A stretch of DNA of 64,000 bases from assembly GCA_016199085.1 (NCBI GenBank), contig JACQHJ010000003.1, forward strand, positions 38,676 to 102,675, read 5' to 3'. Below are positions 27,632-43,809 of this stretch, piece by piece. This DNA comes from Candidatus Levyibacteriota bacterium. GTDB taxonomy: Bacteria > Patescibacteriota > Microgenomatia > Levybacterales > UBA12049. Each line of letters opens with the position of its first letter. Position 1 is the first letter of the stretch. A model generated the notes under the pieces. It was not told where the DNA came from, made no database searches, and saw only the letters and a list, made by a program, of their open reading frames with translations. A program made the position numbers and the translations under genes.

Positions 27632-28420
27632 ATGGGATTTCTTCAAGAAGGAGATCCTGCCCGCTATCATCTTGCTACTACCGAAAGCGGACTTGATATT
27701 GCTGTTCACAAAAAGGCGCTACCTAAGCCTTCTGATATTGATACTAGGCAAGCCAGTAGGCTCGCTAGGTATCTAAAACTTCCTGGCGATTTAGTTCTTC
27801 CATCTGCCGATCATGAATGGGGTTTTGGTCCTGTTCTTAGACAAATAGAAAGCCCTCATCCTGATTGGGTACTTTATTCCTGCGATCTTCCCCAAGGTCA
27901 ACAAAGGAATATAGGAAAGACCGGTGTTGCACAATCGACAACTCTATCTCTTTTATTTGAATTATTGGAAAGGGAAGGAAAGGAAACTGATTCTGTGGTA
28001 CAACAACACCAAACTGTTAATGTAATGGTCAACGGGATAGGAGTTCCCGAAGGATTTGGCTTAATTGCACACTTAAATCCTCCTCTTCTTTCTTGGCTTG
28101 GCGAAAATATGTCTGATCCCGTTTCCGAAGTTATTACCGATGCAATGATAAAAAGTTTTCATAAAATGTATGGGAGTAAACCTTCGATTTATGATGCACG
28201 AGAATTTTACGTTGATTGGCAAGAATCAGGACTATTGTTTACCTCAGTTCCTAGGGCGTTTTTTAATACTGCTCGTGGAACCGTTATTCCAGGAATGGGT
28301 TATGATATGACAACAAATAACTCTGATTTTCCGCATCAACAACTCTCTTTACTAGTAGGACTTGCAAAAATTGAAGAACTTGCAACCGGAGAATATTTCA
28401 GAAAAGCTCCCCAAGCTTAA
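27632..28420 (+). CDS. Hypothetical protein; GC-richer than its neighbours
   Basis: Long ORF with no recognisable motifs and anomalous composition. Confidence 0.4.
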   Translation: MGFLQEGDPARYHLATTESGLDIAVHKKALPKPSDIDTRQASRLARYLKLPGDLVLPSADHEWGFGPVLRQIESPHPDWVLYSCDLPQGQQRNIGKTGVAQSTTLSLLFELLEREGKETDSVVQQHQTVNVMVNGIGVPEGFGLIAHLNPPLLSWLGENMSDPVSEVITDAMIKSFHKMYGSKPSIYDAREFYVDWQESGLLFTSVPRAFFNTARGTVIPGMGYDMTTNNSDFPHQQLSLLVGLAKIEELATGEYFRKAPQA

Positions 28421-28846: not shown

Positions 28847-30004
28847 ATGTCGAGAGAAATTAAAGAACTATCGGGTGTGAATAATAGGCCTGATATTTTG
28901 TTTGCACATAGAGATCTTGCCACAATTGATAGGGGCGGTATTTGTGTTCTTTTTAAATCATTATCTGCAGGCTTAGCGTCAAAAGGTTATAAAGTTCATT
29001 TACTAAGTACAAGAGATATATCTTTGGAGGGAGTATCAGTTCATAGGTTACCTGACATCGAAGATCCAAGAAAATATTCCCAGGTTGTCACTGAAGCAGT
29101 TGAAGATATTGATCCTTTAATAGCTGAGTGTTCAACTTGGAGGTATGAATTACTAGACTATTCAAACAGGCATGGTAGAAGATCTAGGTTAGTAGTAAGA
29201 GCTGACCCAAGTGCAGAGACATTATTTCAAAATGCTGAACATCATTCAGAAGGTGAAAGAGTTCTTTGTGCAAATGCGGATCTTATTTTAGCAGTAAGTG
29301 ATTTTGCTAAACGCGACATACAAACAAGATATGGTGTAAGTGACGACAAGATTCATGTGGTTTATAACGGAATTCCAGTAGTGGAAACTCCTACTCAAAA
29401 TTCAACTATAACATCAGGAGAAATTTTACATCCTGAATTAAATGATGCACAAAGAATACAAAGCTTAAGACTCCAAGATGTTTTAAAACCACAAAGGATT
29501 AATATTATTTGGATAGGAAAGCCAACAAGCATGAAGGGTTTCGATTTTTTAGAAGCTTTGGTTGCAAACGCTACGGATGAATTTAATTTTGTTGTTAACT
29601 TAGGTTATTCTCCCAACGAGATTATGTGGAAAGATGAAAATTATAGAAAATGTACATTTATTAGAGGTTTGAGCAAAAGCGACCAAGCAAAATTGATTAG
29701 TGGATCCGATGTGCTTTTGTCAACTTCTCGATTTGAAGGATTTGGTATTGTGGTTGCAGAAGCACTCCAGTTTGGAGTTCCTGCAGTGATAAACCTAGGG
29801 TGTGAAGTATTTAATGAATTTAAAGATATAAATGGAGTAAGTTTAGTAGATGTACTTAATCTGGAAAAAGTATACTCGACGCTAAGAGCAAGTAAACTTT
29901 TAAAAACTAGGTCATCCCTGCTTCCAGATTTTTTCACTCAAAATCAAATGGTTAATAAAAGCCTGGAATATTATCAAGAACTCTTAGGGTCTAACAAATC
30001 ATAA
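28847..30004 (+). CDS. Glycosyltransferase family 1/4 (GT-B)
   Basis: C-terminal SRFEGFGIVVAEALQFGVPAV (the EX7E motif). Confidence 0.8.
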   Translation: MSREIKELSGVNNRPDILFAHRDLATIDRGGICVLFKSLSAGLASKGYKVHLLSTRDISLEGVSVHRLPDIEDPRKYSQVVTEAVEDIDPLIAECSTWRYELLDYSNRHGRRSRLVVRADPSAETLFQNAEHHSEGERVLCANADLILAVSDFAKRDIQTRYGVSDDKIHVVYNGIPVVETPTQNSTITSGEILHPELNDAQRIQSLRLQDVLKPQRINIIWIGKPTSMKGFDFLEALVANATDEFNFVVNLGYSPNEIMWKDENYRKCTFIRGLSKSDQAKLISGSDVLLSTSRFEGFGIVVAEALQFGVPAVINLGCEVFNEFKDINGVSLVDVLNLEKVYSTLRASKLLKTRSSLLPDFFTQNQMVNKSLEYYQELLGSNKS

Positions 30005-30027: not shown

Positions 30028-32817
30028 GTGCTCATGAGCGCTATTGAAACACAAAGTGGGCAACATGGAATTGATTATTCTCATTATCCACATTTACATG
30101 TAGAAGATTCTCCAAGAAAAGTAATGGAGATTAAATCGGTCATGCCTGCAAACTTTAGAGCAAGAGGATTAATGGATATAGGTTGCGATGCAGGAGTAAT
30201 AACAAAATCTGTTGGACAACTAATAGGGGCTGAAAGGGTTGACGCCGTAGAACCGTCAGAGGACGCCATTTCCTATGCTAGGGATAATTTACAAATATTT
30301 CCATATGGTCAAGTGCACCATATGGAATTTACAAAATTTAATCCAAGCAATAAGCCAGACCTTACTATGCTCATAGATGTGTTAGAGCATTTAGATAATC
30401 CAGCTGAAGCACTTAAAAAAGCAGCTGCTCTTACAAGATTTTCAATTATTAGAACTCCACTTGAGGGGAGCATGGCCGTACAGATTCACCAAAGATTATT
30501 CGGAGAAGATATACAAGCTTTAATGGAGCAAAGATATGGGCATATTCATCACTATACAAAGCAAGGATTAAAAGACTTAATTGAAGATAACGGATTTGAT
30601 ATTGTAAGAGAATCTATTACAAGAATTCCTCAAGGGGCAACAATTTTAGATAGAAGAATAAGTAAAATATTAGAATCGACAGTTTGGAGGTTGTTAAGAA
30701 GTAAATATCCTGACTTATGGGGAGGGTTTTATGTTGCGTTTGCAAAAAGTAGAGAAAGACAAGTTTTAGAAGATGATGTATATCAAAAAATACAAGGTGC
30801 AATAAATCAAGTTTTAGGAGAGTCAAACGTAGTTTCTGTTATTGTATTTGGATCAACAACGGCTGATAGAGACAAAACTCACTCAGATTATGATTTCACT
30901 GTAATTGCTCGCGATTTAAATAGAGACATTAATCAGAGAGAGCAAGCTTCACCTACGATAAAAAAAGTTCTTCAAGATGAGGGAATAAAACAACTATGTG
31001 CGTTCAATATTTACTCTCCTGAAGAATTTGCCTCAGCTGCAAGAAAGGGATCTTGGTTGGTTGAGACTATGAAGACAAACAATAGGATTGTATATGATCC
31101 TGAAGGATTTATGGCTATGGCTTTAGGTGTTACAGCTCCAAACGTTTCTCAAACAGGAGAATTTTCATGGAATGGAGTATCCCACGAGTCAGAGACTCAT
31201 GTACAAGAGGTAATTCAAAGATATAATCGGTTATCACATATAATCTCTCCTATTGACCAAAAAATGGCTAACTACTATAGAAGAGAGGCAATAAGAGGTC
31301 AATTAATATTGAGACTATTTGAGCACGGTGAATATGATACTAGAGGGTCAATTTTTTCACTTGCAAAGAAATTAAGGTATAAGTATGGAGCGCAGCTAGA
31401 TCTACAAAACTTACAGGTTGAAGATTTTTATCAAGAGATTGAGGGTAAGAAAAGAATATTAGATTATGATAGTTCAAATCTTCATTTAAGAATTGCAGAT
31501 GAATTAAATGCTCAAGGATTACATTTAGATGCTCTTGCCCACACTTACCATGCATTAAAAGCAGTTTATTTAAGGTCATTACATAAAAGCGGAAGGTATA
31601 TCGTTGAAGGAGAAATAACTCAATTATTTGTTAAAGAATTTGCTCATATTTTACCTAAAGAAGTAGTTGACTTAATTTTTGCAAATTCATTCAAAGCAGA
31701 ACAAATACTAGGAAGGTCAGGATTTACAACTTTCGACTTAGATAAAGAAGGCTCACCGCTATATGAAGATCAAGTTAACCAAGGGAACAATTACGAGACA
31801 ATTCAAAATAATCTAAGATCAATTATTAATAGTTTGGGCGCAAAAGAAGAAATCTTAAAAAGCAGCACTTCTCCTAAAATTTCCATAGTAATTGCAACAT
31901 ATAATAGGCCTGATAAGATCATTAACTGCATAACAGCTTTAAATACTTTATTAATTCCCGATGATCAAGTAGAGTTAATCGTTGTTAACGATGGATCTAC
32001 TGCCGAATACGATGAGGCATCAATTATTAACTCAAGTAAATTTCCTGTTAAATACGTTGCAAAAGAACACTCAGGAATATGTGGAACAAAAAATGAAGGA
32101 ATTCATCAAAGCCAAGGCGATTATGTAGCGTTTTTAGATGATGACATGGTTACCTCTCCATTCTGGTTAATCAATTTAGTGGCTGGTTTTAAAAACGAAA
32201 GAATTGCAGGAGTAGGATCAACAAACCTAACATATCCTGATAATAACCCAATCTCTGAATATGCTGATTATAGGGAATTAGCTAGGAGAGCATTCAAAGA
32301 CGAATCAGGTGAAATATTAAATGTTTTAACAGGAAGCGCCTGTATTAGAAGAGACGTTTTGCTTCAAGTTGGAGGGTTCAACATGAGACAGTCAGAGCTT
32401 GGTGTAGGATTTGGTGGAGACGATGTTGACTTAACATGGAGAATTAGAAATGCCGGATATTCATTAAATCATGTTAATGAAGCAGTGTGCTTCCATAATC
32501 ATAGGGCAGATCTTGGGTCACTAATTAAGCAGCATGTTGGGTACGGTGAAGGAACAATGTTTCATTGTCTTGATACACAAAGAGATCCTGAATCATTGGG
32601 TATTCCGAGTCCTGACTACATCTCAGTAGCCAAAGACTTATTGGCATATACCTATCTTGAAGTGCCCAAAAGAATGATTAGATCATATAAAGACGGATTA
32701 GGCTTAATAAGATCACTTCAGTATCCTTTATTAGACTTATTAAGAAGGGGAAGTTATGATGTAGGTATACTAAAAGCAAAAAGATTTAAAACAGCCTTAG
32801 ACAAATTTAATAAATAA
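30028..32817 (+). CDS. Multidomain fusion: class I SAM-dependent methyltransferase, then a Pol-beta-type nucleotidyltransferase domain, then a helical domain, then a family-2 glycosyltransferase
   Basis: DIGCDAGVIT (methyltransferase motif I), VIVFGSTTADRDKTHSDYDFTVIA (GS...DxD nucleotidyltransferase motif), and a C-terminal ISIVIATYNRPD...VVNDGS...FLDDD GT2 A-domain. Confidence 0.7.
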   Translation: MLMSAIETQSGQHGIDYSHYPHLHVEDSPRKVMEIKSVMPANFRARGLMDIGCDAGVITKSVGQLIGAERVDAVEPSEDAISYARDNLQIFPYGQVHHMEFTKFNPSNKPDLTMLIDVLEHLDNPAEALKKAAALTRFSIIRTPLEGSMAVQIHQRLFGEDIQALMEQRYGHIHHYTKQGLKDLIEDNGFDIVRESITRIPQGATILDRRISKILESTVWRLLRSKYPDLWGGFYVAFAKSRERQVLEDDVYQKIQGAINQVLGESNVVSVIVFGSTTADRDKTHSDYDFTVIARDLNRDINQREQASPTIKKVLQDEGIKQLCAFNIYSPEEFASAARKGSWLVETMKTNNRIVYDPEGFMAMALGVTAPNVSQTGEFSWNGVSHESETHVQEVIQRYNRLSHIISPIDQKMANYYRREAIRGQLILRLFEHGEYDTRGSIFSLAKKLRYKYGAQLDLQNLQVEDFYQEIEGKKRILDYDSSNLHLRIADELNAQGLHLDALAHTYHALKAVYLRSLHKSGRYIVEGEITQLFVKEFAHILPKEVVDLIFANSFKAEQILGRSGFTTFDLDKEGSPLYEDQVNQGNNYETIQNNLRSIINSLGAKEEILKSSTSPKISIVIATYNRPDKIINCITALNTLLIPDDQVELIVVNDGSTAEYDEASIINSSKFPVKYVAKEHSGICGTKNEGIHQSQGDYVAFLDDDMVTSPFWLINLVAGFKNERIAGVGSTNLTYPDNNPISEYADYRELARRAFKDESGEILNVLTGSACIRRDVLLQVGGFNMRQSELGVGFGGDDVDLTWRIRNAGYSLNHVNEAVCFHNHRADLGSLIKQHVGYGEGTMFHCLDTQRDPESLGIPSPDYISVAKDLLAYTYLEVPKRMIRSYKDGLGLIRSLQYPLLDLLRRGSYDVGILKAKRFKTALDKFNK

Positions 32818-32832
32818 AGATACAATTAACAA

Positions 32833-33393
32833 ATGATTATTACTTCATATTTTGTTGGAATTTTACTTGATGATATATTTATTGATTTGTATAATGAAAT
32901 AGGTCAATATTTATCAGACAATAAAATTAAACATTTAATTACTCTTCAAAATAAATCTAGTCTACATATTACACTTTATTATTTTAAGAAAGATATTGAT
33001 AAAGAAACTATAAGCAGTATTCTACTTGATATAAAAACAATTAAGATTCCTCTTATTAAAATTGATGAGGTTAAATATTTTAAGAATAATAATAAATATT
33101 TGTTATGTTACTTAAATTGCGATAAGCAGAAAATTTTTGAAAAAATAAATTCTTATTTTGCGCAAAAATACAAAAATGATCAAGTATTAGATAATCAATA
33201 CCAATATATTCCTCATATTTCATTTTTTAAGATAAACGATCAAATTAATTTTTTAAGACATAAAGAATCAATCGAAAAAATTATATACAAACATATTAAA
33301 TTAATAGATAATAAAAGAGTATTAGACTCAGTTAGGCTATTTAAGGTTAATTCAAAAACAGACCCAGAAACTCAAATCCCCATGTATACTTGA
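32833..33393 (+). CDS. 2H phosphoesterase superfamily (LigT-like) protein
   Basis: Two H-x-T/S motifs, SLHITLYYF and PHISFFK, spaced as in the 2',5' RNA ligase family. The gene is very AT-rich. Confidence 0.45.
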   Translation: MIITSYFVGILLDDIFIDLYNEIGQYLSDNKIKHLITLQNKSSLHITLYYFKKDIDKETISSILLDIKTIKIPLIKIDEVKYFKNNNKYLLCYLNCDKQKIFEKINSYFAQKYKNDQVLDNQYQYIPHISFFKINDQINFLRHKESIEKIIYKHIKLIDNKRVLDSVRLFKVNSKTDPETQIPMYT

Positions 33394-33435
33394 AATCTAT
33401 TGTTGTATTTGCTATACTATAGGTTAAATTTTGGT

Positions 33436-34257
33436 ATGAATGTTAAAATTAACAATATAATAGCGTCAAATAAAAAGCCTTTTATTTTAATTGCAGGGCC
33501 CGATTCGATTGAGTCATTAGACCATGCAATGCTTATGGCTAAGAGCATTAATAAAATTGCAAAACAATTTCAAATTCCCTATGTATTTAAAGCTTCATAC
33601 GATAAGGCAAATAGAACTTCTGTTACTTCTTTCCGTGGGGTCGGTATGGAAGAAGGAGTAAAAATTCTAACTAAAATTCAAGACACTCTTAAAATTCCGG
33701 TTACGACTGATGTCCATACCGTAGAACAGGCAGAATATGTTGGTAAATTTATAAATTTAATACAAGTGCCAGCGCTTTTAAGCAGGCAGACGGACTTATT
33801 AGTTGCAGCAGGAAAAACAAAAAAGGCAGTGAATATTAAAAAGGGACAATTTATTGCACCTCAAAATGCAAATAACTTAATAGGAAAAGTTACATCGACG
33901 GGAAATACAAACGTATTAATAACAGAAAGAGGAACAACCTTTGGTTACAATGATGTAGTAACTGATATGCGTGGATTAGAAATAATGAAAAGGTTCGGTT
34001 ACCCAGTAATATTTGATGCTTCCCATACAGTTCAATTTCCATCAAATCTAGGAAATAAATCAGGTGGAGATAGAAGTTTAATTCCAGCTTTAGCAAAAGC
34101 AGCAATTGCTGTTGGAATTGCGGGCATATTCATGGAGATACATAATAATCCTTCCAAGGCACCTGTAGATGGATTAAGTTCTTTAGATTTGAAGGATCTT
34201 AAAGGATTATTGAGAACATTAAAGTCTATAGATAAAATAGTTAAGAATTATGAATAA
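33436..34257 (+). CDS. kdsA: 3-deoxy-8-phosphooctulonate (Kdo-8-P) synthase
   Basis: KASYDKANRTSVTSFRGVGMEEGVKIL matches KdsA FKSSFDKANRSS..SYRGPGLEEGMKIF. The length is about 275 aa. I placed the start at the MNVKINN ATG at 33436. Confidence 0.85.
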   Translation: MNVKINNIIASNKKPFILIAGPDSIESLDHAMLMAKSINKIAKQFQIPYVFKASYDKANRTSVTSFRGVGMEEGVKILTKIQDTLKIPVTTDVHTVEQAEYVGKFINLIQVPALLSRQTDLLVAAGKTKKAVNIKKGQFIAPQNANNLIGKVTSTGNTNVLITERGTTFGYNDVVTDMRGLEIMKRFGYPVIFDASHTVQFPSNLGNKSGGDRSLIPALAKAAIAVGIAGIFMEIHNNPSKAPVDGLSSLDLKDLKGLLRTLKSIDKIVKNYE

Positions 34258-34864
34258 AGATTTAATAATAAAAGCTGGAAAAGCAGTGCTAAAAAATGCT
34301 GCAAGAAATATATTAATTACAGAAAAGAAACTAGACAATAATTTCGTTGAAGCAGTAAATATTCTAAAACGAAGAAAGGGTAAGATAATTGCTGTTGGTA
34401 TTGGGAAATCAGGGATAATAGCTAATAAATTTTCTTCAACTATATCTAGTACAGGAAACCTTTGCATATTCGTTCACCCAACCGAAGCATTTCACGGAGA
34501 CTTTGGAAAAATTAATGAAAAAGATGTCTTAGTAATTTTTTGCCATAGTGGTGAAACAAAAGAAATTATCGATTTCTTAATGTTTTGTAAACAAAAAAAT
34601 AAAAATATTAAGATTATATCTATTACCTCAAAATTTGATTCAACTATTTCACTTATGTCAAATGTAACTTTAACTACTTGGGTAGAAGAAGAGCATGCAG
34701 ATCCAAGATTTAAGTTGATTCCGACAACAAGTGCTTCTGTAACATTGGCCTTATCAGATGCTTTAATAATATCTCTGCAGACAATTAACAAATTTCAAGC
34801 ACATAGATTCTATAAAAATCACCCTGGAGGACATATTGGTGAAATATCAAGAAACTATAATTAA
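34250..34864 (+). CDS. SIS-domain arabinose-5-phosphate isomerase (KdsD/KpsF-type, single SIS domain without CBS)
   Basis: GKIIAVGIGKSGIIANKF...FVHPTEAFHGDFGKI...FCHSGETKEI closely follows the KdsD SIS motifs (GKSG, FVHPGEAAHGDLG, SNSGES). Confidence 0.75.
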   Translation: MNKDLIIKAGKAVLKNAARNILITEKKLDNNFVEAVNILKRRKGKIIAVGIGKSGIIANKFSSTISSTGNLCIFVHPTEAFHGDFGKINEKDVLVIFCHSGETKEIIDFLMFCKQKNKNIKIISITSKFDSTISLMSNVTLTTWVEEEHADPRFKLIPTTSASVTLALSDALIISLQTINKFQAHRFYKNHPGGHIGEISRNYN

Positions 34865-35525
34865 TAACTCCCTACCTAAATCATTCATTTTTGACATGGA
34901 TGGTGTATTAATTGATAGTGAGTCTGCCTGGGTTCCTTTCCAAGATGCATTCTCAACCTCATTATTTGGCCTAGAAATATATAAAAAAGTTGGTGCCTCA
35001 GTAGGAATAACAATAAACGACATTTATAAAAAGGCAAGTAGATTTGGTTTTTCAATGAATATGGATCAATATTATTCTAGATATGATCAGCAAGCAATTG
35101 AGGTGTATAAAAATGCTAAGCCGACAAAGGAAATAAAGAAATTGGTAACTTTCTTAAAACATAGGGGATTTAAAATAGGGCTTGTTTCATCCTCAAGAAA
35201 AACTTGGATTAAATTTGTACTAAATAAACTCGATTTAGAAGGGCTATTTGATGACATTTTATCTATAAATGATGAGAAAATTGAATCAAAACCAAAACCA
35301 ACTGCATATAGCAAAATAATTAACAAACTTGGTGTAAAAGAATCTCAGGCTATTGTTCTAGAAGATACAAATAATGGAATTAATTCTGCTAAAAAAGCTG
35401 GTGCAATTGTAATAGGTTTTCAAGAAAATATTCCTAATAATTACATACAGAAAAACGCTGATTACTATGCTATCAATGTAAATGATGTTATAAATGTTGT
35501 AAATAGATTAATAGATGGCAGGTGA
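34836..35525 (+). CDS. HAD-superfamily hydrolase (subfamily IA), candidate sugar-phosphate phosphatase
   Basis: Motif I FIFDMDGVLIDSE plus downstream HAD motifs. It overlaps the stop codon of the kdsD-like gene. Confidence 0.75.
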   Translation: MVKYQETIINNSLPKSFIFDMDGVLIDSESAWVPFQDAFSTSLFGLEIYKKVGASVGITINDIYKKASRFGFSMNMDQYYSRYDQQAIEVYKNAKPTKEIKKLVTFLKHRGFKIGLVSSSRKTWIKFVLNKLDLEGLFDDILSINDEKIESKPKPTAYSKIINKLGVKESQAIVLEDTNNGINSAKKAGAIVIGFQENIPNNYIQKNADYYAINVNDVINVVNRLIDGR

Positions 35526-36339
35526 AAGAAAAGATTTACCAACTCCAAAGCTTGCAACTGCAAGAGATGCATATGATTCATATGCTAAATACTATGACGA
35601 ATCAACTAATTGGTTTGATCAAGATCTTCCTTTTTATTCCAGATTACTGCAAACAACTGTACCGCCGTTTATTGAAGTAGGCTGTGGAACTGGACGAGTA
35701 CTCAATTACTTATTGACATCATCTGGAGCTAATAAACCAAAGGGGGAATCTCCTGCCTACATAACTGGTGTTGATATATCAGAGGAGATGCTTGAAGTTT
35801 GTAGAAGAAAAGCTAAAAAATTTATTGATAAAAAAGTATTAATATTAATAAATCATGATCTCGCTGAAGAACCGTTGCCAGATGTAAGTTTTAATGCTGC
35901 GCTTGTGACATTTTACGTTATGAACTATATACCGGAGGAATTACAAGCTAGATTTTTAGAAAATATTTATTCAATGTTAAATCCTAGAGGAATTATAGCA
36001 ATAAATTTATTCTATCCTAGAATACAAAGAGAACCATCTATCGCAAATGCATGGAAAAGCCATTCTATACCCACGCGCGAAGGACCAGTTTCTTTCGATG
36101 AAAGACAAAGATTAATAGAAGACGTAGAAGAAAGAGAGCTAATATTTAATCCAACCATGTTTGGAGGTGAAAGAATTTTCTTAAGGAGATTTTATATTTC
36201 TCCAACCAAGGGGAAAACGTTGCTTGAGCAAGCTGGTTTTACTGACGTAGAGCACTTAAAAGGTTTTAATAGGCACAACCTTGGAAATTTCGAGGAAGAT
36301 CCCAATTCTTATAGCTTTACATTAATTGCTAGAAAATAA
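35515..36339 (+). CDS. Class I SAM-dependent methyltransferase
   Basis: Motif I EVGCGTGRV. Confidence 0.7.
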   Translation: MAGERKDLPTPKLATARDAYDSYAKYYDESTNWFDQDLPFYSRLLQTTVPPFIEVGCGTGRVLNYLLTSSGANKPKGESPAYITGVDISEEMLEVCRRKAKKFIDKKVLILINHDLAEEPLPDVSFNAALVTFYVMNYIPEELQARFLENIYSMLNPRGIIAINLFYPRIQREPSIANAWKSHSIPTREGPVSFDERQRLIEDVEERELIFNPTMFGGERIFLRRFYISPTKGKTLLEQAGFTDVEHLKGFNRHNLGNFEEDPNSYSFTLIARK

Positions 36340-37214: not shown

Positions 37215-37664
37215 CTACTTGTCTAGTTTGAATATGCTTATATCTTCTTCTGATAAATTATCCTTCTCCCAAAATTTGAGCCTGTGCCAAATAGTTTGTC
37301 CTTTCATATCTTTTTGAATTGCGACTACTAGCTTTTTATAGAAATCGTCACTATCGCCGCCTGCTGGTTTTTTGCTAGAATGCGCAGCGATAAATTTATT
37401 AGCTAAGCGAATAACAGTTGCCGAAGCATAAAGGGGAGCATGAGTATAAAGTTCTTCCATGAAATTCTTTTGTCTTTCCTTATCAATCCATCCCTCAAAA
37501 AAACCAATTATATTTTCGAGAAATTTTTTATATTGATCTTCTTTCCTTTCTCTTGCGTAAAGCTCCCGCTCTCTGTTTCTTTCGAATCGATCATTAAGAT
37601 ATGCGCCAATAAGGCCACCCAATCCTAACGATCCGACTAGGGCAATAAGTATTTCAGAATTCAT
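37215..37664 (-). CDS. Hypothetical protein with N-terminal TM
   Basis: ORF only. Confidence 0.4.
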   Translation of the reverse strand: MNSEILIALVGSLGLGGLIGAYLNDRFERNRERELYARERKEDQYKKFLENIIGFFEGWIDKERQKNFMEELYTHAPLYASATVIRLANKFIAAHSSKKPAGGDSDDFYKKLVVAIQKDMKGQTIWHRLKFWEKDNLSEEDISIFKLDK

Positions 37665-37705
37665 TTATTATTAAAACTGCAGACACGCTCATGATTGTGT
37701 TTGTT

Positions 37706-37765
37706 TTTGCTGAGCATCTCGGTTTAGAACCACCTTATCTTTATTGCTATTCTAGATTGCCTACT
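37706..37765. repeat. Intergenic repeat copy C, followed by an att-like TATTCTAG...CCTACT segment
   Basis: The sequence tttgctgagcatctcggtttagaacc...gctattctagattgcctact is seen directly. Confidence 0.5.
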
Positions 37766-38321
37766 CTTGTTTAACGCCTATTGTGCGTTGAGACTCTAAT
37801 TTATTGGCCGCTTCTAAAAAAGATGCTCTATCATTCAAGTCTATATCTTTACTCATTTCCTTAAAACTTTCTAATTGTTCTTTTGTTTGAGCTATTAAGA
37901 TGTCTTTATGTTTTAGATAAAACCACAGACGAAATGCAGTCATGAAGCCTGTAATCTCAATGGTTAACTCTTGATACATCCTAATATCGTCCCAGATAAC
38001 AAATTCGCTTGATGCTGGATTAAATCTCAGTAATTTATCAGGATCACTATTTGCATGTTTAAAAAAATTATAGGGTTCATTAAGTTTTTTTAGCACAAAG
38101 GCCTGTTTCTCTGGTTTTATGTATCCATCCATCTGGGATTTAAAAGATTTTATGCCTGAGGCTTTTCCTATTCCAGATAGTATTTCTTCGGCAGCGCAAG
38201 CAGAAAGGTGAATTATTACAAAATCTCCATAATTAAAAAACAATTTAATAGCATGCTCTAATTCTCTTTTTGCAACATCTAGCTTTGAGACGTTTATGAT
38301 TTTTTTAGTTTCTTCGTCCAT
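37761..38321 (-). CDS. Hypothetical protein
   Basis: ORF only. Confidence 0.4.
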   Translation of the reverse strand: MDEETKKIINVSKLDVAKRELEHAIKLFFNYGDFVIIHLSACAAEEILSGIGKASGIKSFKSQMDGYIKPEKQAFVLKKLNEPYNFFKHANSDPDKLLRFNPASSEFVIWDDIRMYQELTIEITGFMTAFRLWFYLKHKDILIAQTKEQLESFKEMSKDIDLNDRASFLEAANKLESQRTIGVKQE

Positions 38322-39024: not shown

Positions 39025-39243
39025 ATGAAAGAAGATAGAGCACAAAGATTTAAGAGAATCGCCACATATAGAACAAACGAGGTCTTGGATAAGCTCAGGC
39101 TCTTAGGGAATCTCTCCAACAAAGCTAATTATGAATATACAGAGGACGAGGTAAACAAAATATTTTCAGCTATAGAGATTCAGTTAAGAATTGCTAAGGC
39201 TAAATTTTCTTCTTCAAAGAAAAAGAAAGAGTTTTCGCTATGA
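39025..39243 (+). CDS. Small hypothetical protein (72 aa), first gene of the four-gene operon
   Basis: The ORF from the ATG at 39025 overlaps the next gene by 4 nt (ATGA). Confidence 0.45.
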   Translation: MKEDRAQRFKRIATYRTNEVLDKLRLLGNLSNKANYEYTEDEVNKIFSAIEIQLRIAKAKFSSSKKKKEFSL

Positions 39244-39845
39244 GTAATGAAGAATTAACAAATGTTGATATCGTCTTGTACTCGCTTTATTTGCTTGGTG
39301 GTAGTAGAAGAAAGATTTTTACCGAAGATATCGCCAAAAAGTGTTTTGAATTAGCACAAGATCGTTTTTCTTGGAGAAGATATCCAGAATACCCAGATAT
39401 TGAGCCTGCAAGAAAATCTTTAATGGAAGCAAGAAACCAGAAAGACTTAATAAGCGGCAGGGCAGGAGAAGTTAAGGGTACAAAACCATCTGATGGATGG
39501 ATTTTCTCTCCTGAAGGTGTGTTCTGGATAGAAAAAAATAAATCACGTATTGAAAAAGCGCTAGGCAAAAAACAAAAACCTATCAAGAGAACAGAACTTT
39601 CCAAAAAAATTGCCGAGCTTGAATCTTCAAGCGCATTCTTAGAATTTTTGAAAGAAAAGACGTGCAACAATATCAAAGCTTATGAATTCACTGATTTTCT
39701 AAACGTTAGCCTTGATACCCCATCATCAGTAATCAAGAGTAGAATTCAAACTGTTAAGGCTCTTGCAGCATCAGAAAAAAGAGAAAAACTTCTTACATTT
39801 ATTGCGCTTTGCGAAAAAAATTTTTCCAAATTAATTAATAATTAA
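39240..39845 (+). CDS. Hypothetical protein (201 aa), second gene of the operon
   Basis: Translationally coupled to both flanking genes. Confidence 0.5.
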   Translation: MSNEELTNVDIVLYSLYLLGGSRRKIFTEDIAKKCFELAQDRFSWRRYPEYPDIEPARKSLMEARNQKDLISGRAGEVKGTKPSDGWIFSPEGVFWIEKNKSRIEKALGKKQKPIKRTELSKKIAELESSSAFLEFLKEKTCNNIKAYEFTDFLNVSLDTPSSVIKSRIQTVKALAASEKREKLLTFIALCEKNFSKLINN

Positions 39846-39846
39846 C

Positions 39847-42096
39847 ATGAATCCAAATTCTAATATAATTTTTGGCCAACCACAAAAATTTGATATATCT
39901 GATAGATACTTTCTTCAAACAGCTGAGAGCGCAATGAAAGGAGATGTAATAAGGGGGTTAGTTGAATTAATTACCAATGCTGATGACAGTTACGAAGAAG
40001 TTGAGTCAAAAGGATTAACTAGTAGCGGGAAAATACTCATTGAAATAATAAGAAAAAAGCAAGGCAAAAATAGTTTAATTAAGGTCGTTGATAAAGCTGA
40101 AGGAATGAAGCTGGAAGAAATGGTTATTAAGTTAAAAAGGGTTGGGGGGATGACAAGCCATTTTATTGAAAGCAAAGGATTAAAAACGAGAGGATTAATG
40201 GGTAGAGGTAGCAAAGAATGTGTGGTTTTTGGTCCTTTAACTTTCAAATCAATAAAAGACAATATTTATTCTGAAGTTGTTTTAAAAAAACCTGCAATCT
40301 TTATTCCGCAAATCGAAAGACCTGTAACAGAAGTCGACAGAGTAAAGCTAGATATTAAAGGGAATGGAACAGTTGTGGAATTAAAAGTTGAACCACATTT
40401 TCAAATTCCGAGCCATAACTCTTTAGTAGAGAATTTACCAAAATATTACAGTCTGAGGGATATTACATCCAATCCCAAAAGAATAATTGAGTTAAGTGAC
40501 GGTAAAAGATCTGATAGGCTAGTTTACAATCCTAAAAAAGGCACTGTTGTACTAGATGAAGTAATTAATGTTATGGAATATCCTGGCGCGCAGGCTCATC
40601 TCATTCTAATAAAAACGCCTGAATCAATTGAGGTTGAAAGTAATTCTCCTTTTTGGGAAGGTGGAATATTAATTCAAAGCGGGCATGCAGTTCACGGCGT
40701 AACGGGATTCACTAGAGATATCGAGAATAATCCTTATTTTGTACATTATTTTGGAAGATTGGTTTGTACTTATATTGATATTCTTGCAATAGAATATGAA
40801 GAATATGAAAAAAATAATCAAGCGCATACCGCGTTAAACCCATCGAGAATTATCGAACCATTAAGAAAGGAAGGATTATTCTCTAACCATCCCTTTACTA
40901 AGATTTTGTATAGAGAAGCTTCACGGAGAATAAAAAATCTTTTGAAAAAAGACGAGGAACTCTCTACCTCAATGATTAAAGAAATAGAAAATAAAAAAAC
41001 AAAAGATAGACTCAAAAGGCTGGCTGACGCAGTTAGCAGGTTTATTAAAGAAAGGACTGAAGATTTGGAAATAGAAGATGATAACTATCTTTCTGGTTCT
41101 GACATTCCCGTTGGTGGGATGATTGTGATACCTGGTGGACTTAGAGTTCCAATTGGTGAAGAAAAAAGGTTTTATGTTTATGTTAAACCAAAAATACAAC
41201 AGGATAGATTTGTTACGCTTTTTACTCAGTCCAGCGCAATAGCCCTAAGCTCTAAAAAGGAAGAGCTAATTGAAAGGAATGATGGAACTTTTTACGCCCA
41301 GTTCTCTGTAAAAGGAGTTGATTATGTCAATGACGCTATAGTTAAGGTAAATTGGTCGAATATAGAAAATAATGTTCCTGTTTCAGTAATTAAAAAGGAA
41401 GAAGATCATCCATTTATTACTGACTTCTCTTTTGAAAAAAATAAATATAATTTACGTGAAGGTAAACAGAAGGATATTTATTTATTGGCTAAATGGCCTG
41501 ATTTTGTCCACGGATGGGCGGAATGTACTATTGAGACAAACAAAAATGAATTTTTAACAGTTTTGGGTAATAAAACTAGATTAAAATATAAACGATTTAA
41601 CGATGGGACACAGATGGCCATAGGAAAAGTCAAAATATATGGGGTAAAAACGGGAGGCCCAACCATAATTAAAACGTCTATAAATAATAAAACAGTGCAA
41701 ACAGAAATAAATGTTCTTCCAAAATTGGAGTTAGGACATAATATCGAGATCAAATTGGTTGATGAAGAAGCGGGAGCACAGAGAGCAGTTTGGGATGGGG
41801 ACATTTTAAAAATAAATACGAGACATAAAACTATTCATAGATATTCCGGTCCACCACCTGACTATTTAGGACAAGATTCAATTCATTTTCATTTGTTGTT
41901 GGCAGAATTGATAGCAGATAATGTAGCTAGGCGAGTTTTAGAATTAAATGCTGAAAAAAATATACATAAATATCAAGATATGGATATATATGGTTTTTAT
42001 GATATACACAGAAAGTATGTAAATGATTTCTTAGAAGTTGCCCATAACATTCAAATTCCCGATAATGAACTTGTAAATATTGTCCTTAATTCTTAG
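39847..42096 (+). CDS. Large protein (749 aa) with a putative N-terminal GHKL-type (Bergerat-fold, MORC/Hsp90/MutL-like) ATPase domain, then a coiled coil and a beta-rich C-terminal region
   Basis: N-box-like ELITNADDS, G1-box-like VVDKAEGMKLEEM (a degenerate DxGxG), and G2-like TRGLMGRGSK. I recognised nothing in the remainder. Confidence 0.5.
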   Translation: MNPNSNIIFGQPQKFDISDRYFLQTAESAMKGDVIRGLVELITNADDSYEEVESKGLTSSGKILIEIIRKKQGKNSLIKVVDKAEGMKLEEMVIKLKRVGGMTSHFIESKGLKTRGLMGRGSKECVVFGPLTFKSIKDNIYSEVVLKKPAIFIPQIERPVTEVDRVKLDIKGNGTVVELKVEPHFQIPSHNSLVENLPKYYSLRDITSNPKRIIELSDGKRSDRLVYNPKKGTVVLDEVINVMEYPGAQAHLILIKTPESIEVESNSPFWEGGILIQSGHAVHGVTGFTRDIENNPYFVHYFGRLVCTYIDILAIEYEEYEKNNQAHTALNPSRIIEPLRKEGLFSNHPFTKILYREASRRIKNLLKKDEELSTSMIKEIENKKTKDRLKRLADAVSRFIKERTEDLEIEDDNYLSGSDIPVGGMIVIPGGLRVPIGEEKRFYVYVKPKIQQDRFVTLFTQSSAIALSSKKEELIERNDGTFYAQFSVKGVDYVNDAIVKVNWSNIENNVPVSVIKKEEDHPFITDFSFEKNKYNLREGKQKDIYLLAKWPDFVHGWAECTIETNKNEFLTVLGNKTRLKYKRFNDGTQMAIGKVKIYGVKTGGPTIIKTSINNKTVQTEINVLPKLELGHNIEIKLVDEEAGAQRAVWDGDILKINTRHKTIHRYSGPPPDYLGQDSIHFHLLLAELIADNVARRVLELNAEKNIHKYQDMDIYGFYDIHRKYVNDFLEVAHNIQIPDNELVNIVLNS

Positions 42097-42138
42097 CTGT
42101 GAAGAGAGAGTAACGAGGATATAATCCAGTTAGAATTT

Positions 42139-43425
42139 ATGCCAAAGAAATCATACAGAATAGGTGAATTACCTCAAGAGCTTAAAACAAAAAGTGTTTT
42201 TTATTACGTTAACGAAAAGCAAGGTTTAAAAGTAAAATCAAAAGAAGTATTCAAAAATGGAGAAAAAGTTGTTCACTATCCATTTAAAAGGGATGGCACT
42301 CCTAAATATAGAAATATAAGAAAAATTACATATGAAAATATGCCAGAGAATTTACCAAGAGGATTTTATAAAGAATGGACTAAAGGTTATGGTTTTACTC
42401 GTGTATATAATCCCTTAATTTATCGACTTGATGATGCATTAAAAATTCAAGAAGTTATAGTTAGCAAAAACATAATCACAAAATTTGAAAATGGAAAACT
42501 ATATTTGAACTCTGATAAATTAGACTCATCTTATCCCAAAATAGATTTGCTTTTAAAAAAACACAATGTTGAAATTGATAATTTAGCTAATGATATTTTG
42601 TCGAAGTATTTCCCTCAAACTTTCAAGAATAAATCTCAGAAATACATAAAAGGAAGCTTAGCGCAATTTATAGATAAAAATGTAACTCAAATCTCTGATT
42701 TATCAGAAGCAGACACGCAATCCTTATTTGATCTTGCCTCTAGAATTTCAAAAGATGATTTTCTAGAAAGTAAAACCAGTGTATTAAAGACTAAAGAAAA
42801 AATTGAAGAAGTTTATATTGAAGAAGTAATTGAAGAATTTGAAAAATTATTATCTAGAAAGAATTTGACTAAAAATTTAGAAGAAAGATGGCAGAAGTTT
42901 TTTACGCAATATAATTGGATCTTTTCTCAATTATTTTCATTTCCAGTTTTAATTTTTAAAGATAAGGCTTATGTGGGAGGGAAAGGTATAGAAAATGCAA
43001 ATGGGAAAATCTCTGATTTTATCTACAAAAATAAATTAACAAACAATATTGCTTTTATAGAAATTAAGACTCATAAAACTCCAATACTTATTGATAAACC
43101 ATATAGAGGAAATGATGTTTATTCTGTAAGTAAAGACATGAGCGGAGCTGTTAATCAGGTATTAGATCAAAGAGATAATTTTCAGAAAGAATTTTATTCT
43201 CTTAAATCTAAAAGTAAAAATAAGAATTTTGAATCTTACAATTCTAAGTGTATCATTATCACTGGTAGCTTAAGTAAGCTCTCGGAAGAAGAAAAGAAAT
43301 CCTTTGATTTAATGAGAAGCAATAGTAGAGATGTAGACATAATCACATTTGACGAAGTGTTAGAGAAAATTAAAGGACTAGAATCTTTACTTTTTGGTTC
43401 TAAGCAAAAATCTACTGCAAATTAA
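42139..43425 (+). CDS. Protein (428 aa) with a C-terminal DUF4263/Shedu-like PD-(D/E)xK nuclease domain
   Basis: DFIYKNK...IAFIEIKTHK (D...ExK), QVLDQ...Y, and C-terminal IIITGS...DIITFDEV resembling the DUF4263 C-terminus. Confidence 0.45.
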   Translation: MPKKSYRIGELPQELKTKSVFYYVNEKQGLKVKSKEVFKNGEKVVHYPFKRDGTPKYRNIRKITYENMPENLPRGFYKEWTKGYGFTRVYNPLIYRLDDALKIQEVIVSKNIITKFENGKLYLNSDKLDSSYPKIDLLLKKHNVEIDNLANDILSKYFPQTFKNKSQKYIKGSLAQFIDKNVTQISDLSEADTQSLFDLASRISKDDFLESKTSVLKTKEKIEEVYIEEVIEEFEKLLSRKNLTKNLEERWQKFFTQYNWIFSQLFSFPVLIFKDKAYVGGKGIENANGKISDFIYKNKLTNNIAFIEIKTHKTPILIDKPYRGNDVYSVSKDMSGAVNQVLDQRDNFQKEFYSLKSKSKNKNFESYNSKCIIITGSLSKLSEEEKKSFDLMRSNSRDVDIITFDEVLEKIKGLESLLFGSKQKSTAN

Positions 43426-43500
43426 TACACCTTGCGTTATTGTAAAAGTTTTGTTTTTTGCTATAGTAAAACGGTAGTCAAACTTTTCTTTTCGGTTTTT

Positions 43501-43553
43501 TAATGGCCGCATTGGACAGATCCGAAAAGGGTTTGACTACACCAGTGCGGCCA
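43501..43553. other. 13-bp-stem hairpin (aatggccgcattgg...ccagtgcggccatt) immediately downstream of the operon; candidate terminator or recombination site
   Basis: Inverted repeat with one mismatch and a 24-nt loop, seen directly. Confidence 0.3.
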
Positions 43554-43621
43554 TTTGAGTACTTTAAAATTTTTGCGTTTTTCTCCCAAAGACGATTTGG
43601 GAACGAGTCGACAGTTTTTGA

Positions 43622-43710
43622 GCGAGGCGAGGCCGAGCTCTAAAATAGTAGGAGCGAAGCGACTATTTAAGAAACGAAGTTCGACATTTTTCGTAAGTAG
43701 CCAGCAAGCT
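43622..43710. repeat. Inverted repeat X' (reverse complement of 38334..38422)
   Basis: Direct comparison. Confidence 0.9.
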
Positions 43711-43809
43711 AGAATAATTAAACCTACGAGGACCTAAACCCTCCGCCGGAAAACTTTCAGAAAGAACGGCAAATCCGGCCTTTTTGAAATCAGCAGACAG
43801 TCGTCGAAA
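43704..43809. repeat. Inverted repeat Y' (reverse complement of 45245..45349; 93 bp perfect plus an extension with 2 mismatches). It abuts and overlaps X' at the shared core CAGCAAG
   Basis: Direct comparison. Confidence 0.9.

Follow-up and report, generated by a model that had tools for sequence, protein, structure and literature searches.

What would a bacterium do with a single polypeptide that joins a methyltransferase, a nucleotidyltransferase and a glycosyltransferase and is encoded close to genes for making Kdo? The question is raised by an open reading frame from Candidatus Levyibacteriota, and we addressed it in a window of 64 kb taken from a 182-kb contig (features in Table 1). Almost nothing is known of the surface chemistry of CPR/Patescibacteria, uncultured bacteria with tiny genomes that live attached to the cells of their hosts. 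A Kdo pathway is unexpected in bacteria without lipopolysaccharide; here it is wired to a glycosyltransferase (GT), a methyltransferase (MT) and a nucleotidyltransferase (NT) of the antibiotic-resistance type, and the fusion cassette offers a concrete, testable entry into CPR surface chemistry.

Table 1. Features of the fusion cassette, in window coordinates.
Feature	Position	Strand	Remarks
GT4 glycosyltransferase, directly upstream of fusion	28847..30004	+	conserved only in closest relative, L011
Whole fusion ORF	30028..32817	+	929 codons from GTG 30028, stop 32815-32817
Class I SAM methyltransferase domain, aa ~40-242	30145..30753	+	Pfam, Foldseek, invariant columns
Pol-beta-superfamily minimal nucleotidyltransferase (MNT), aa ~243-385	30754..31182	+	
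HEPN-fold helical domain and linker, aa ~386-610	31183..31857	+	
GT2 (GT-A fold) glycosyltransferase domain, aa ~611-850	31858..32577	+	Pfam, PDB, Foldseek
C-terminal amphipathic helices, aa ~851-929	32578..32814	+	part of GT2 subfamily; no transmembrane segment
2H (LigT-like) phosphoesterase, 186 aa	32833..33393	+	H45-I-T, H128-I-S; profile match to LigT
KdsA, 3-deoxy-8-phosphooctulonate (Kdo8P) synthase	33400..34257	+	NCBIfam
SIS-domain sugar-phosphate isomerase, KpsF/GutQ/KdsD type	34250..34864	+	arabinose-5-phosphate isomerase catalytic domain, no CBS pair
HAD-IA phosphatase, inferred Kdo8P phosphatase substitute	34836..35525	+	function from position only
Second, separate class I methyltransferase, cassette end	35515..36339	+	

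The reading frame is real and intact, as a sequence-only reading of this DNA had assumed. Its likelier start is the ATG at 30034, which matches a 927-aa NCBI protein; the product is identical to that protein, from a Candidatus Levybacteria MAG. NCBI, JGI, ENA and Logan assemblies supplied 16 more full-length homologs, 918-928 aa long and 46-63% identical. All align end to end with no domain missing, and the order that had been proposed, MT, minimal NT, helical (HEPN) domain and GT2, is retained in 17/17 family members. Since these colinear proteins come from independent assemblies, a mis-joined frame or assembly artefact is ruled out, and an open frame of this length cannot have arisen by chance in DNA of 34% G+C. 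The motifs originally quoted were also recovered, as DIGCDAG (aa 50-56) and GS-x10-DxD (G275 S276, D287 Y D289). Mean column identity is 0.63 for the MT, 0.66 for the NT, 0.63 for the HEPN and 0.74 for the GT2 part. The fusion protein has no hydrophobic or transmembrane segment (maximum Kyte-Doolittle 19-residue mean 1.19), ruling out a membrane protein. Judged from its sequence, it is a genuine four-module cytoplasmic enzyme with predicted activities: SAM methyltransferase, MNT, non-RNase HEPN and GT2. Members have been seen almost wholly in CPR/Patescibacteria, and the family is rare among species representatives; a genome-collection scan for further loci gave one true relative, on a 2.8-kb contig.

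The N-terminal domain matches Methyltransf_23 at aa 40-194 (Pfam, 55.7 bits against a cut-off of 27) and superposes by Foldseek on 2p7h and 3cc8 with target-normalised TM-scores of 0.66-0.71 (0.69-0.71 for 2p7h). It holds 37 invariant columns. In motif I, D50-I-G-C-D-A-G, the middle glycine of GxGxG is replaced and the last is alanine in three homologs; D50 and the motif DVLEH (aa 117-121) are invariant, and every family member has an acidic residue (E/D76) after strand 2. This divergent motif I appears compatible with SAM binding. At the other end, PF00535 is matched at aa 619-778 (Pfam, 75.3 bits against 23.3), with PDB sequence matches to K4CP (1.2e-15), PglI-like AvpGT (8.9e-14) and DPM synthase, and Foldseek matches to PcManGT, K4CP and ppGalNAc-Ts (probability 1.00 to GT-A enzymes). 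D655, D704-D705-D706 (17/17) and G796-G-D-D-V-D801 are invariant. The domain is assigned to family 2 with a GT-A fold, and is predicted to transfer from an activated donor. Its subfamily resembles polysaccharide and lipid-linked glycan enzymes; given the DxD motif and a resemblance to UDP-sugar enzymes, it is unlikely to take NMP-Kdo as its donor.

The middle region is a nucleotidyltransferase, as had been proposed. Polbeta PF18765 scores 24.7 bits at aa 259-316 of the full protein, under the 26.9 cut-off, and 27.5 bits in a scan restricted to the middle part; 11/11 homologs match both Polbeta and NTP_transf_2 (best E 1.6e-7), and fold and profile alike place the domain among the Pol-beta MNTs (PF18765/PF01909). 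LicD/FKRP-type phosphotransferases are NT-fold domains that act on glycans; the fusion protein has no match to the LicD Pfam family. The catalytic aspartates, whose conservation had been singled out as a check, are kept at two of three positions. G275-S276 and D287-x-D289 are invariant in 17 sequences, and both Asp are present in 141/141 aligned relatives, but the third-carboxylate position on strand 3 is an invariant asparagine, N327 (C-A-F-N-I-Y), across the whole clade; only some distant relatives of about 270 aa have Asp there. Six residues further on, E333 is invariant in the family and is E/D in 97/129 aligned relatives (75%), and may substitute for the third carboxylate. For catalysis, that place would have to be taken by E333 or by a residue of the HEPN part, for example E529 or E558. 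A degenerate regulatory role, which had been suggested, is improbable, since the module is also encoded by a gene of its own in operons that carry these partners.

A helical domain is present as described, but the NT is not an isolated minimal one: the helical part has a four-helix up-down HEPN fold, so that MNT and HEPN together form one embedded, fused module of the KNTase/ANT type, with MNT antitoxins among its nearest matches in sequence and fold. A conserved Rx4-6H RNase motif is absent from aa 386-610 (best case 5/17 sequences), so the HEPN is non-RNase, as in NT-associated HEPN domains. For the same reason, and because the partners are sugar enzymes, an RNase or RNA-repair reading of the MT, NT, HEPN and 2H combination is unlikely. 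The conserved HEPN motifs are GE(I/V)TQ(L/M)F (528-534) and FKAEQxLGR (555-563), and these polar motifs are kept even in stand-alone relatives at about 25% identity. Y514, on a helix with vestigial R/K...H residues, is invariant in the family and absent from the wider-family proteins P0036, P0041 and P0044.

The strongest conserved partner of the fusion, which the sequence-only reading had missed, is the 2H gene. It lies directly downstream in every locus with enough flank, the MT-less relative L006 included, with a 4-8 nt overlap or an 8-15 nt gap. Both H45-I-T and H128-I-S are invariant in 7/7 members, PF13563 is matched by all seven, and the profile aligns both HxT motifs with PDB LigT 1vdx/2fyh (E 1.4e-8), confirming the predicted product as a member of the 2H phosphoesterase superfamily. 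Enzymes of this superfamily cleave 2'-5' oligoadenylate and related phosphodiesters.

The genes that follow make up most of a Kdo pathway. KdsA passes equivalog cut-offs (NF003543, 376 bits against 242; TIGR01362, 359 bits against 314), is 67-81% identical in homolog loci and is retained in L012 despite rearrangement; the SIS isomerase falls below full-length cut-offs because its CBS domains are absent. KdsA, the KdsD-like isomerase and the HAD phosphatase are found in all six four-domain loci with enough flank, window included, and this Kdo-making set is an addition of the fusion clade. Compared with the canonical KdsD-KdsA-KdsC-KdsB set it is incomplete: it has KdsA, a SIS-only KdsD and a HAD-IA phosphatase for KdsC, with no KdsB in the window. 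Nothing resembling KdsB turned up by tblastn with an approximate query, either in the window or across homolog loci L001-L014 (best E 0.6); the gene could lie in a part of the genome outside these regions. KdsB, the CMP-Kdo synthetase, converts NTP and Kdo to NMP-Kdo and PPi and has a GT-A-like fold. This step is the one missing from the cassette, and its chemistry is that of sugar O-nucleotidylation, although the fold differs from that of the NT; a KdsB-like role for the NT is purely hypothetical.

The proposal that the fusion, the GT4 and the Kdo genes form a glycan-modification locus thus holds in part. The Kdo link is conserved (KdsA in 6/6 loci), but the GT4 is kept only in the closest relative and so is no defining part of it. 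Flippase, polymerase and exporter genes are absent from the cassette's immediate surroundings in the window, where an ABC-2 pair comes no closer than 19 kb. A scan of the cassette for promoters and terminators gave counts at or below shuffled expectation. The window methyltransferase at the cassette end gave no tblastn match to the stand-alone methyltransferases found close to the fusion in L001, L003 and L011. The fusion, the 2H gene and the Kdo set point to an undescribed way to build or decorate a surface glycan.

Distant lineages show how the fusion can be taken apart. There, NT-HEPN, the same GT2 subfamily, a 2H or NUDIX protein, a class I/II aminotransferase and kinases are separate neighbouring genes. 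The GT2s of operons with free-standing NT-HEPN match over the whole GT2 and C-terminal helices (blastp E 2e-37 and 3e-34, alignment to aa 913-919), and these operons also carry homologous aminotransferases, 2H or NUDIX proteins and kinases. The aminotransferases, MocR/GntC/MppQ-like, recur in at least 6 lineages, the kinases near NT-HEPN are APH-like or P-loop, and NUDIX, His_Phos and PHP domains occur in the neighbourhoods; the window has no aminotransferase or kinase of the split-system kind. The conserved core is, as far as sequence can define it, NT-HEPN with a particular GT2 subfamily, working with a downstream LigT-like 2H protein of predicted activity; the MT was added in the fusion clade. 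Because L006 has the 2H gene but no Kdo genes, Kdo is not a universal substrate. Settings vary: L001 lies within a clear surface-polysaccharide locus (Wzy_C, Bac_transf, CDP-OH_P_transf and GT1 genes), L016 adjoins MurD-like and FtsW genes, and several homolog loci are in mobile or defence-rich regions with restriction, TA, conjugation or Shedu genes. PADLOC returned no defence-system match, only weak generic MT and MNT hits, and a known anti-phage system is unsupported. Literature searches on this architecture, on Kdo in CPR and on 2H enzymes with glycosyltransferases gave nothing specific.

We tentatively prefer, at somewhat short of an even chance, a catalytic NT that shares a single glycoconjugate pathway with the GT2, MT and 2H enzymes. 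KNTase-like enzymes, among them ANT(4'), ANT(3'')(9) and Lnu, nucleotidylate sugar hydroxyls. We infer that the NT-HEPN module is probably a pathway enzyme rather than a linker. It would be an active nucleotidyltransferase like those that act on kanamycin, streptomycin and lincosamides, with G275-S276 and D287/D289 holding NTP-Mg, and would join an NMP to a hydroxyl of a sugar, or to a sugar phosphate, that the neighbouring gene products supply; in the fusion clade, with no KdsB visible, the substrate might be Kdo or Kdo8P. The GT2 would then add a sugar from an NDP-sugar, the methyltransferase would modify the product of that step, and the 2H enzyme would cleave or resolve the nucleotide phosphodiester, so that a Kdo-containing, methylated glycoconjugate is built or capped. 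Against this reading stand N327 in strand 3, the borderline full-length Pfam score, a GT2 unlike a user of NMP-Kdo, the absence of Kdo genes from L006, the chance of a KdsB elsewhere in the genome and the lack of a flippase, polymerase or exporter next to the cassette. The known enzymes also differ: ANT(4') kanamycin nucleotidyltransferase, ANT(3'')(9)/AadA and LinB are stand-alone resistance enzymes of about 250 aa, whereas the NT-HEPN has about 370 aa, a larger HEPN-type bundle, an asparagine at the strand-3 position and a place between two enzymes. No sequence similarity of the NT to ANT(4'), AadA or LinB was found beyond the GS...DxD region.

The sequence-only reading had compared the fusion with modular terminators that combine an MT with a GT, and such enzymes have been described (PMC11231755, PMC3482155). 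Two of them, K. pneumoniae O7 ORF6 and E. coli O9a WbdD, share with the fusion an N-terminal SAM MT, a phosphotransfer-type second domain and a helical region, and act in cytoplasmic glycan assembly, where Kdo or methylphosphate terminates related systems (PMC11231755, PMC3482155); ORF6-O7 also has C-terminal GT2 modules (PMC11231755). In these proteins, however, a protein-kinase/APH-like kinase takes the place of the Pol-beta nucleotidyltransferase and a long coiled-coil ruler that of the HEPN bundle, and there is an ABC transporter link and no 2H partner. We found no sequence relationship of the fusion to them beyond generic MT and GT2 folds; with no kinase domain match, no coiled coil and no adjacent ABC transporter, it is similar in layout alone and is not a terminator of that type. 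A counterpart of these methyltransferase-kinase-ruler-GT2 enzymes could still be imagined in which the NT adds NMP to the terminal sugar, the 2H enzyme removes the nucleoside to leave a (cyclic) phosphate, the MT methylates this to a methylphosphate-like cap, the GT2 extends the chain and the HEPN is a dimerising spacer. In its favour, the fusion's module order is that of ORF6-O7, with its MT, initially unannotated phosphotransfer domain, helical spacer and GT2 (PMC11231755; WbdD, PMC3482155), the 2H partner is obligatory, and Kdo itself is a known chain terminator (PMC11231755). Kinases near the split systems look as if kinase and NT plus 2H were alternative phosphate-adding routes, yet those systems have NT-HEPN and kinases together and the two are not simple alternatives. 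We regard this capping as rather unlikely: besides lacking the coiled coil, the cassette adjoins no ABC transporter, Wzm/Wzt pair or carbohydrate-binding module, phosphorylation by nucleotidylation and cleavage is without precedent in glycan capping, and the aminotransferase association is unexplained. That association suits instead a soluble phosphorylated or nucleotide-linked metabolite resembling an amino-sugar acid, in which an aminotransferase acting on a 2-oxo acid such as Kdo is followed by kinase, NT, GT and MT, a scheme reminiscent of natural-product or resistance chemistry of the nucleoside or aminoglycoside type. APH-like kinases with an ANT-like NT resemble aminoglycoside-modifying enzymes, the NUDIX, His_Phos and PHP domains nearby and the mobile or defence-rich loci would fit, and neither membrane or export genes in the cassette nor a transmembrane segment in the fusion ties it to the surface. 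The window cassette has no aminotransferase or kinase, however, L001 sits in a surface-polysaccharide locus and L016 beside MurD-like and FtsW genes, and the GT2 subfamily is akin to polysaccharide and lipid-linked glycan enzymes, which makes a small-molecule product quite unlikely.

Two explanations remain. MntA/HepT and FhepTA resemble the NT-HEPN module in having an MNT followed by a HEPN, in GSx10DxD and in being among its closest sequence and fold matches (PMC7641770, PMC13000451), and the FhepTA MNT auto-oligoAMPylates tyrosine (PMC13000451; PMC7641770). The MNT could likewise auto-(oligo)AMPylate the fused HEPN, perhaps at Y514, sense ATP and gate the MT and GT2, with the 2H enzyme erasing the AMP chain as 2'-5' oligoadenylate is cleaved. 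But those toxin modules, of two genes or one, have an R-phi-xxxH RNase motif with an adjacent acceptor Tyr, both absent here, whereas the fusion's NT-HEPN is flanked by metabolic enzyme domains; with R-phi-xxxH-x-Y missing (criteria in PMC13000451), embedding in a 929-aa enzyme and weak PADLOC MNT hits, a type VII MntA/HepT or FhepTA TA module is ruled out. Y514 is lost in the wider family, and free-standing NT-HEPN among GT2, aminotransferase, kinase and NUDIX genes, with no PADLOC defence-system match, is more typical of a pathway enzyme. A regulatory switch is accordingly improbable to much the same degree as a soluble metabolite. Finally, the NT-HEPN could be catalytically dead, serving only for dimerisation or as a spacer between the active enzymes on either side: HEPN domains commonly dimerise, the loop after GS (aa 276-284) is modelled at low confidence, the third-carboxylate position is an asparagine and the Pfam score is borderline. 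An inert scaffold is nevertheless very unlikely, as GS and DxD are unchanged down to 46% identity and both Asp are universal among relatives, NT-HEPN is as conserved as the MT domain, the HEPN polar motifs persist in distant stand-alone relatives and the module is an independent gene in conserved operons.

If the NT-HEPN does activate or nucleotidylate a sugar, it would be a new enzyme class in nucleotide-sugar biochemistry; its obligatory 2H partner would be explained, and the KNTase/ANT fold would gain a natural metabolic role beyond antibiotic resistance and toxin-antitoxin systems. In a bolder form, which we hold to be improbable, the NT-HEPN would be a previously unrecognised Pol-beta-fold sugar-activating or glycan-nucleotidylating enzyme that, with the obligatory 2H, lets CPR bacteria make Kdo-containing (or phosphate/methylphosphate-capped) glycoconjugates without KdsB. 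A single channelling enzyme would then unite the synthetase with the transferase and the methyltransferase, and NT-HEPN, GT2, 2H/NUDIX, aminotransferase and kinase would form the toolkit of a new, widespread, undescribed pathway. Should its function prove ordinary, the fusion is still a clean case of gene fusion and fission delimiting a functional module.

Among modular glycan enzymes the fusion is an uncharacterised variant. WsaE, the methyl-/rhamnosyltransferase of the Geobacillus stearothermophilus S-layer glycan, is a Gram-positive-type envelope enzyme without an NT or HEPN module and without a 2H partner; compared by description only, it resembles the fusion in joining an MT to GT2-type domains, and combines elongation with capping (PMC2943079).

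The ATG at 30034, two codons inside the fusion ORF, agrees with the start of a 927-aa NCBI protein, labelled Candidatus Levybacteria (CPR/Microgenomates lineage), whose sequence is 100% identical to the fusion. Among 5.8 billion proteins searched, 16 full-length relatives besides the fusion (918-928 aa, 46-63% identity), from NCBI, JGI, ENA and Logan assemblies, could be aligned end to end, and this colinearity rules out a mis-joined ORF. The sequence-only reading had described a methyltransferase (MT), a Pol-beta-type nucleotidyltransferase (NT), a helical domain and a GT2 glycosyltransferase in one polypeptide; the intact frame, the end-to-end relatives and the Pfam matches (see table) bear this out, and all the motifs it cited are present. 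One full-length homolog, P0014, sits on a 4.2-kb contig and bears the NCBI label Candidatus Heimdallarchaeota, which is probably a binning error given the CPR origin of all other members.

Features in the window and Pfam domains of the fusion protein (residues numbered from the GTG)
Feature	Position	Strand	Details
Beta-helix protein	12729-14999	-	756 aa
Fusion ORF	30028 (GTG)-32817	+	929 codons, uninterrupted
Methyltransf_23	residues 40-194		55.7 bits, cut-off 27
Polbeta	residues 259-316		24.7 bits in full-length protein, slightly below cut-off 26.9
Glycos_transf_2	residues 619-778		75.3 bits, cut-off 23.3
Hairpin	30299-30327	-	perfect 11-bp stem, then T-rich tail
2H phosphoesterase gene (predicted)	32833-33393	+	186 aa, directly downstream of fusion
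Kdo-making set	33400-35525	+	KdsA, KdsD-like SIS without CBS, HAD-IA phosphatase; CPR genome
Probable integrative island	39240-45417		
Shedu-type nuclease (SduA_C)	42139-43425		in probable integrative island
Large serine recombinase	43784-45406		end adjoins window's only tRNA
tRNA-Gln	45346-45417	-	sole tRNA in window

The Polbeta score rises to 27.5 bits when the middle part of the fusion is scanned by itself, and the middle parts of all 11 homologs scanned match both Polbeta and NTP_transf_2 (best E 1.6e-7). Mean column identity is 0.63 in the MT, 0.66 in the NT, 0.63 in the helical part, 0.74 in the GT2 and 0.64 in the C-terminal helices, indicating that the middle region is constrained equally to the recognisable enzymes. 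The MT has D50 (motif I) and D117-V-L-E-H121 among its invariant residues, and the GT2 has D655-G-S, D704-D-D706 and G796-G-D-D-V-D801. UDP-sugar GT-A enzymes match the GT2 domain in sequence (K4CP, 1.2e-15; PglI-like AvpGT, 8.9e-14) and in fold (PcManGT, K4CP, ppGalNAc-Ts and WrtF); the MT matches 2p7h and 3cc8, uncharacterised class I methyltransferases. The fusion belongs to GT2 and to the class I methyltransferases. No transmembrane segment was found in the protein.

AlphaFold models were obtained for the full-length fusion (pLDDT 77.3, pTM 0.72) and for residues 243-612 with 11 aligned homologs (pLDDT 82.7, pTM 0.85), the latter being a confident model. The N-terminal half of the modelled module resembles MNT antitoxins (8xeh_E, 9.1; 5yep_A, 8.9; HI0073, 8.9) as well as ANT(3'')(9) (8.7), DrrA (8.6), KNTase (8.3), ANT(4')-IIb (8.1) and LinB (6.9). 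The domain previously noted as helical is indeed so, and the fold matches of the model sharpen the assignment to a predicted HEPN fold; as modelled, MNT and HEPN are fused into one embedded module with the same arrangement as kanamycin nucleotidyltransferase. An Rx4-6H motif is not conserved in the HEPN part, the best candidate being present in 5 of 17 sequences, and the domain is therefore not of the RNase type. Its polar motifs, GE(I/V)TQ(L/M)F at 528-534 and FKAEQxLGR at 555-563, are retained in relatives of only ~25% identity.

The GS (G275-S276) and DxD (D287-Y-D289) of the NT are invariant within the family, and both Asp are kept in 141/141 aligned relatives. Conservation of the catalytic Asp residues, which the sequence-only reading had offered as a check, thus holds at two of three positions and fails at the third: at the strand-3 site, which in Pol-beta enzymes usually has a carboxylate, the fusion family invariably has Asn, N327 (C-A-F-N-I-Y), with Asp in this column only in a few distant ~270-aa relatives (P0044, P0053, P0054, P0060). 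Distant stand-alone MNTs likewise have no strand-3 carboxylate and carry an acidic residue six positions on, in a T/S-x-x-E-F motif; of 129 aligned sequences, 97 have E or D in the corresponding column, that of E333, which is invariant in the fusion family. The catalytic bases of ANT(3'')(9) (Glu87) and KNTase (Glu145) lie outside strand 3, so N327 alone is no argument for a dead enzyme. With the third carboxylate as a caveat, the fusion NT belongs to the Pol-beta MNTs, and the HEPN domain joined to it is non-RNase.

Pfam gave nothing above threshold for the 186-aa product encoded directly downstream. This protein has two H-x-T/S motifs (LHITL and PHISF), a profile of seven orthologs matches the LigT structures 1vdx and 2fyh (E 1.4e-8) with both motifs aligned, and 7/7 family members match PF13563, which together identify it, by sequence, as a predicted LigT-like 2H phosphoesterase. 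In every locus with enough flank (L001/2, L003/4, L005, L009, L011, L012 and the MT-less relative L006) the 2H gene lies directly 3' of the fusion, with a 4-8 nt overlap or an 8-15 nt gap, making it the most constant neighbour across all lineages examined.

The 2H gene is followed by KdsA, a KpsF/GutQ/KdsD-type SIS isomerase without CBS domains, a HAD-IA phosphatase and a second methyltransferase. One would not expect Kdo in bacteria believed to be without lipopolysaccharide. KdsA clears both equivalog cut-offs (376 bits against 242, 359 against 314) and is found at 67-81% identity in 6/6 four-domain loci with enough flank, the window being one of them; in L012, KdsA and SIS are relocated upstream on the opposite strand. 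The GT4 gene upstream of the fusion is conserved in the closest relative only, so that of the GT4 and Kdo locus proposed from sequence the Kdo part stands and the GT4 part does not. An approximate KdsB query found no similar sequence in the window, which covers 64 kb of the 182-kb contig, or in L001-L014 (best E 0.6).

A middle-module profile searched against 1.84 billion representatives matched 209 proteins, 18 of which scored below 1e-30. These relatives form three groups: NT-HEPN-GT2 proteins of 661-684 aa that have no methyltransferase (P0033, P0036 and P0042), NT-HEPN proteins whose C-termini are degenerate, and free-standing NT-HEPN proteins of ~270 aa. Several (P0032, P0035, P0036, P0038, P0042, P0045, P0056; L006, L007, L014) show W in place of an expected conserved G (FWS for FGS) because code-25 lineages, in which UGA encodes Gly, were called with UGA as Trp; retranslated with table 25, L006 reads cleanly with all motifs restored. 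In distant lineages the components occur in operons as separate neighbouring genes, in the order aminotransferase, NT-HEPN, P-loop kinase, GT2 (L015); His_Phos, GT2, APH-PHP, P-loop kinase-aminotransferase, NT-HEPN, NUDIX, then MurD-like and FtsW (L016); or 2H-aminotransferase fusion, NT-HEPN, GT2, APH-like kinase (L018/L019). The GT2s of these split systems match the fusion GT2 domain from end to end, C-terminal helices included (E 2e-37, 3e-34 and 5e-19), and six loci have aminotransferases, of the MocR/GntC/MppQ-like class I/II type, that are homologous to one another (E 1e-29 to 1e-77). This pattern of fusion and fission indicates that NT-HEPN and this GT2 subfamily serve one pathway. Unusual composite proteins also occur here: a class I/II aminotransferase joined to a 2H phosphoesterase (L018/L019 4356-6023, 555 aa), the same aminotransferase joined to a P-loop kinase (AAA_33/KTI12-like; L016 3468-5285, 605 aa) and an APH-like kinase with a PHP phosphoesterase domain (L016 1669-3489, 606 aa).

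These data allow us to infer, tentatively, a model in which a KNTase-like NT, the GT2, the MT and the 2H act in one pathway. NT-HEPN would be an active nucleotidyltransferase that transfers an NMP onto a hydroxyl or phosphate group of a sugar supplied by the products of neighbouring genes, Kdo or Kdo8P being the obvious candidate in the fusion's clade given that KdsB, the activating enzyme, is not seen; the GT2 would transfer sugar from an NDP-sugar, the MT would modify the product and the 2H would cleave a nucleotide phosphodiester. Difficulties for this model are the Asn at the third carboxylate position, an NMP-Kdo donor that is not expected for a DxD-type GT2, and the MT-less relative, which is without Kdo genes. 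That a sugar-activating or glycan-nucleotidylating enzyme of Pol-beta fold, with the 2H, provides a KdsB-independent route to Kdo glycoconjugates we consider unlikely. The earlier interpretation stands in part and is sharpened by the HEPN fold, the 2H partner and Asn327/Glu333; nucleotidylation of a glycan or sugar is a predicted function. An inert NT-HEPN scaffold, to which N327 might point, is very improbable, and the fusion/fission pattern argues that the module is an independent component and no mere linker.

Alternatively, in a terminator-like capping reaction, NT and 2H could put on a phosphate that the MT then methylates. The layout is like that of K. pneumoniae O7 ORF6, in which a domain between the MT and a helical spacer, at first unannotated, is the kinase of a methylphosphate terminator and GT2 modules follow (PMC11231755); WbdD is a related comparison system (PMC3482155). 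The fusion has no kinase, coiled coil or ABC transporter, however, and so is not a WbdD/ORF6-type terminator; we regard such capping as doubtful. An auto-AMPylation switch, as in the fused MNT-HEPN FhepTA (PMC13000451), with the 2H as eraser, is quite unlikely: the R-phi-xxxH-x-Y motif is absent, which places the fusion outside the MntA/HepT and FhepTA toxin-antitoxin family, and PADLOC matched it to no defence system. The aminotransferase, kinase and NUDIX partners of the split systems would suit a soluble small-molecule pathway, which we likewise hold to be distinctly improbable; no homolog of the split-system aminotransferases or kinases was found in the window, and the fusion's clade has Kdo genes and an N-terminal MT in their place. 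We class the fusion as a putative modular glycan-assembly enzyme within an undescribed conserved gene set. The literature searched contained no description of its architecture or of Kdo synthesis in CPR bacteria, and no precedent for a 2H enzyme as partner of, or coupled to, a glycosyltransferase.

The cassette may be horizontally mobile. In one homolog lineage (L003/L004) the fusion-2H-KdsA-SIS-HAD genes lie between T4SS pilin/TrbC-like genes and a relaxase with a TraG/VirD4-like ATPase, and the cassette thus sits inside a conjugative-element-like region. Elsewhere it is found beside toxin-antitoxin pairs in L005, beside restriction and GmrSD genes in L006, and beside an AAA_15/SMC-like ATPase in L012. 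The G+C content of the window falls to 0.31 over 32-36 kb.

Pfam found no match for sizeable ORFs round the cassette (27632-28420 (+), 37215-38321 (-), 39240-42096 (+); 262, 149, 186, 201 and 749 aa); the 262-aa ORF had no NCBIfam or PADLOC match either and is not conserved beside the fusion in other loci. The probable integrative island comprises two ORFs of unassigned family (201 and 749 aa), the Shedu-type nuclease and the large serine recombinase. The hairpin (TTCCATATGGT...ACCATATGGAA), antisense within the MT-coding part of the fusion, is the sole terminator-like site in 10 kb; this is fewer than the shuffled expectation, so the hairpin is probably due to chance. Besides its NosD/right-handed beta-helix repeats, the beta-helix protein carries a LysM domain and a GT2 match that looks like a fragment; it is possibly a cell-wall-bound glycan-active protein.
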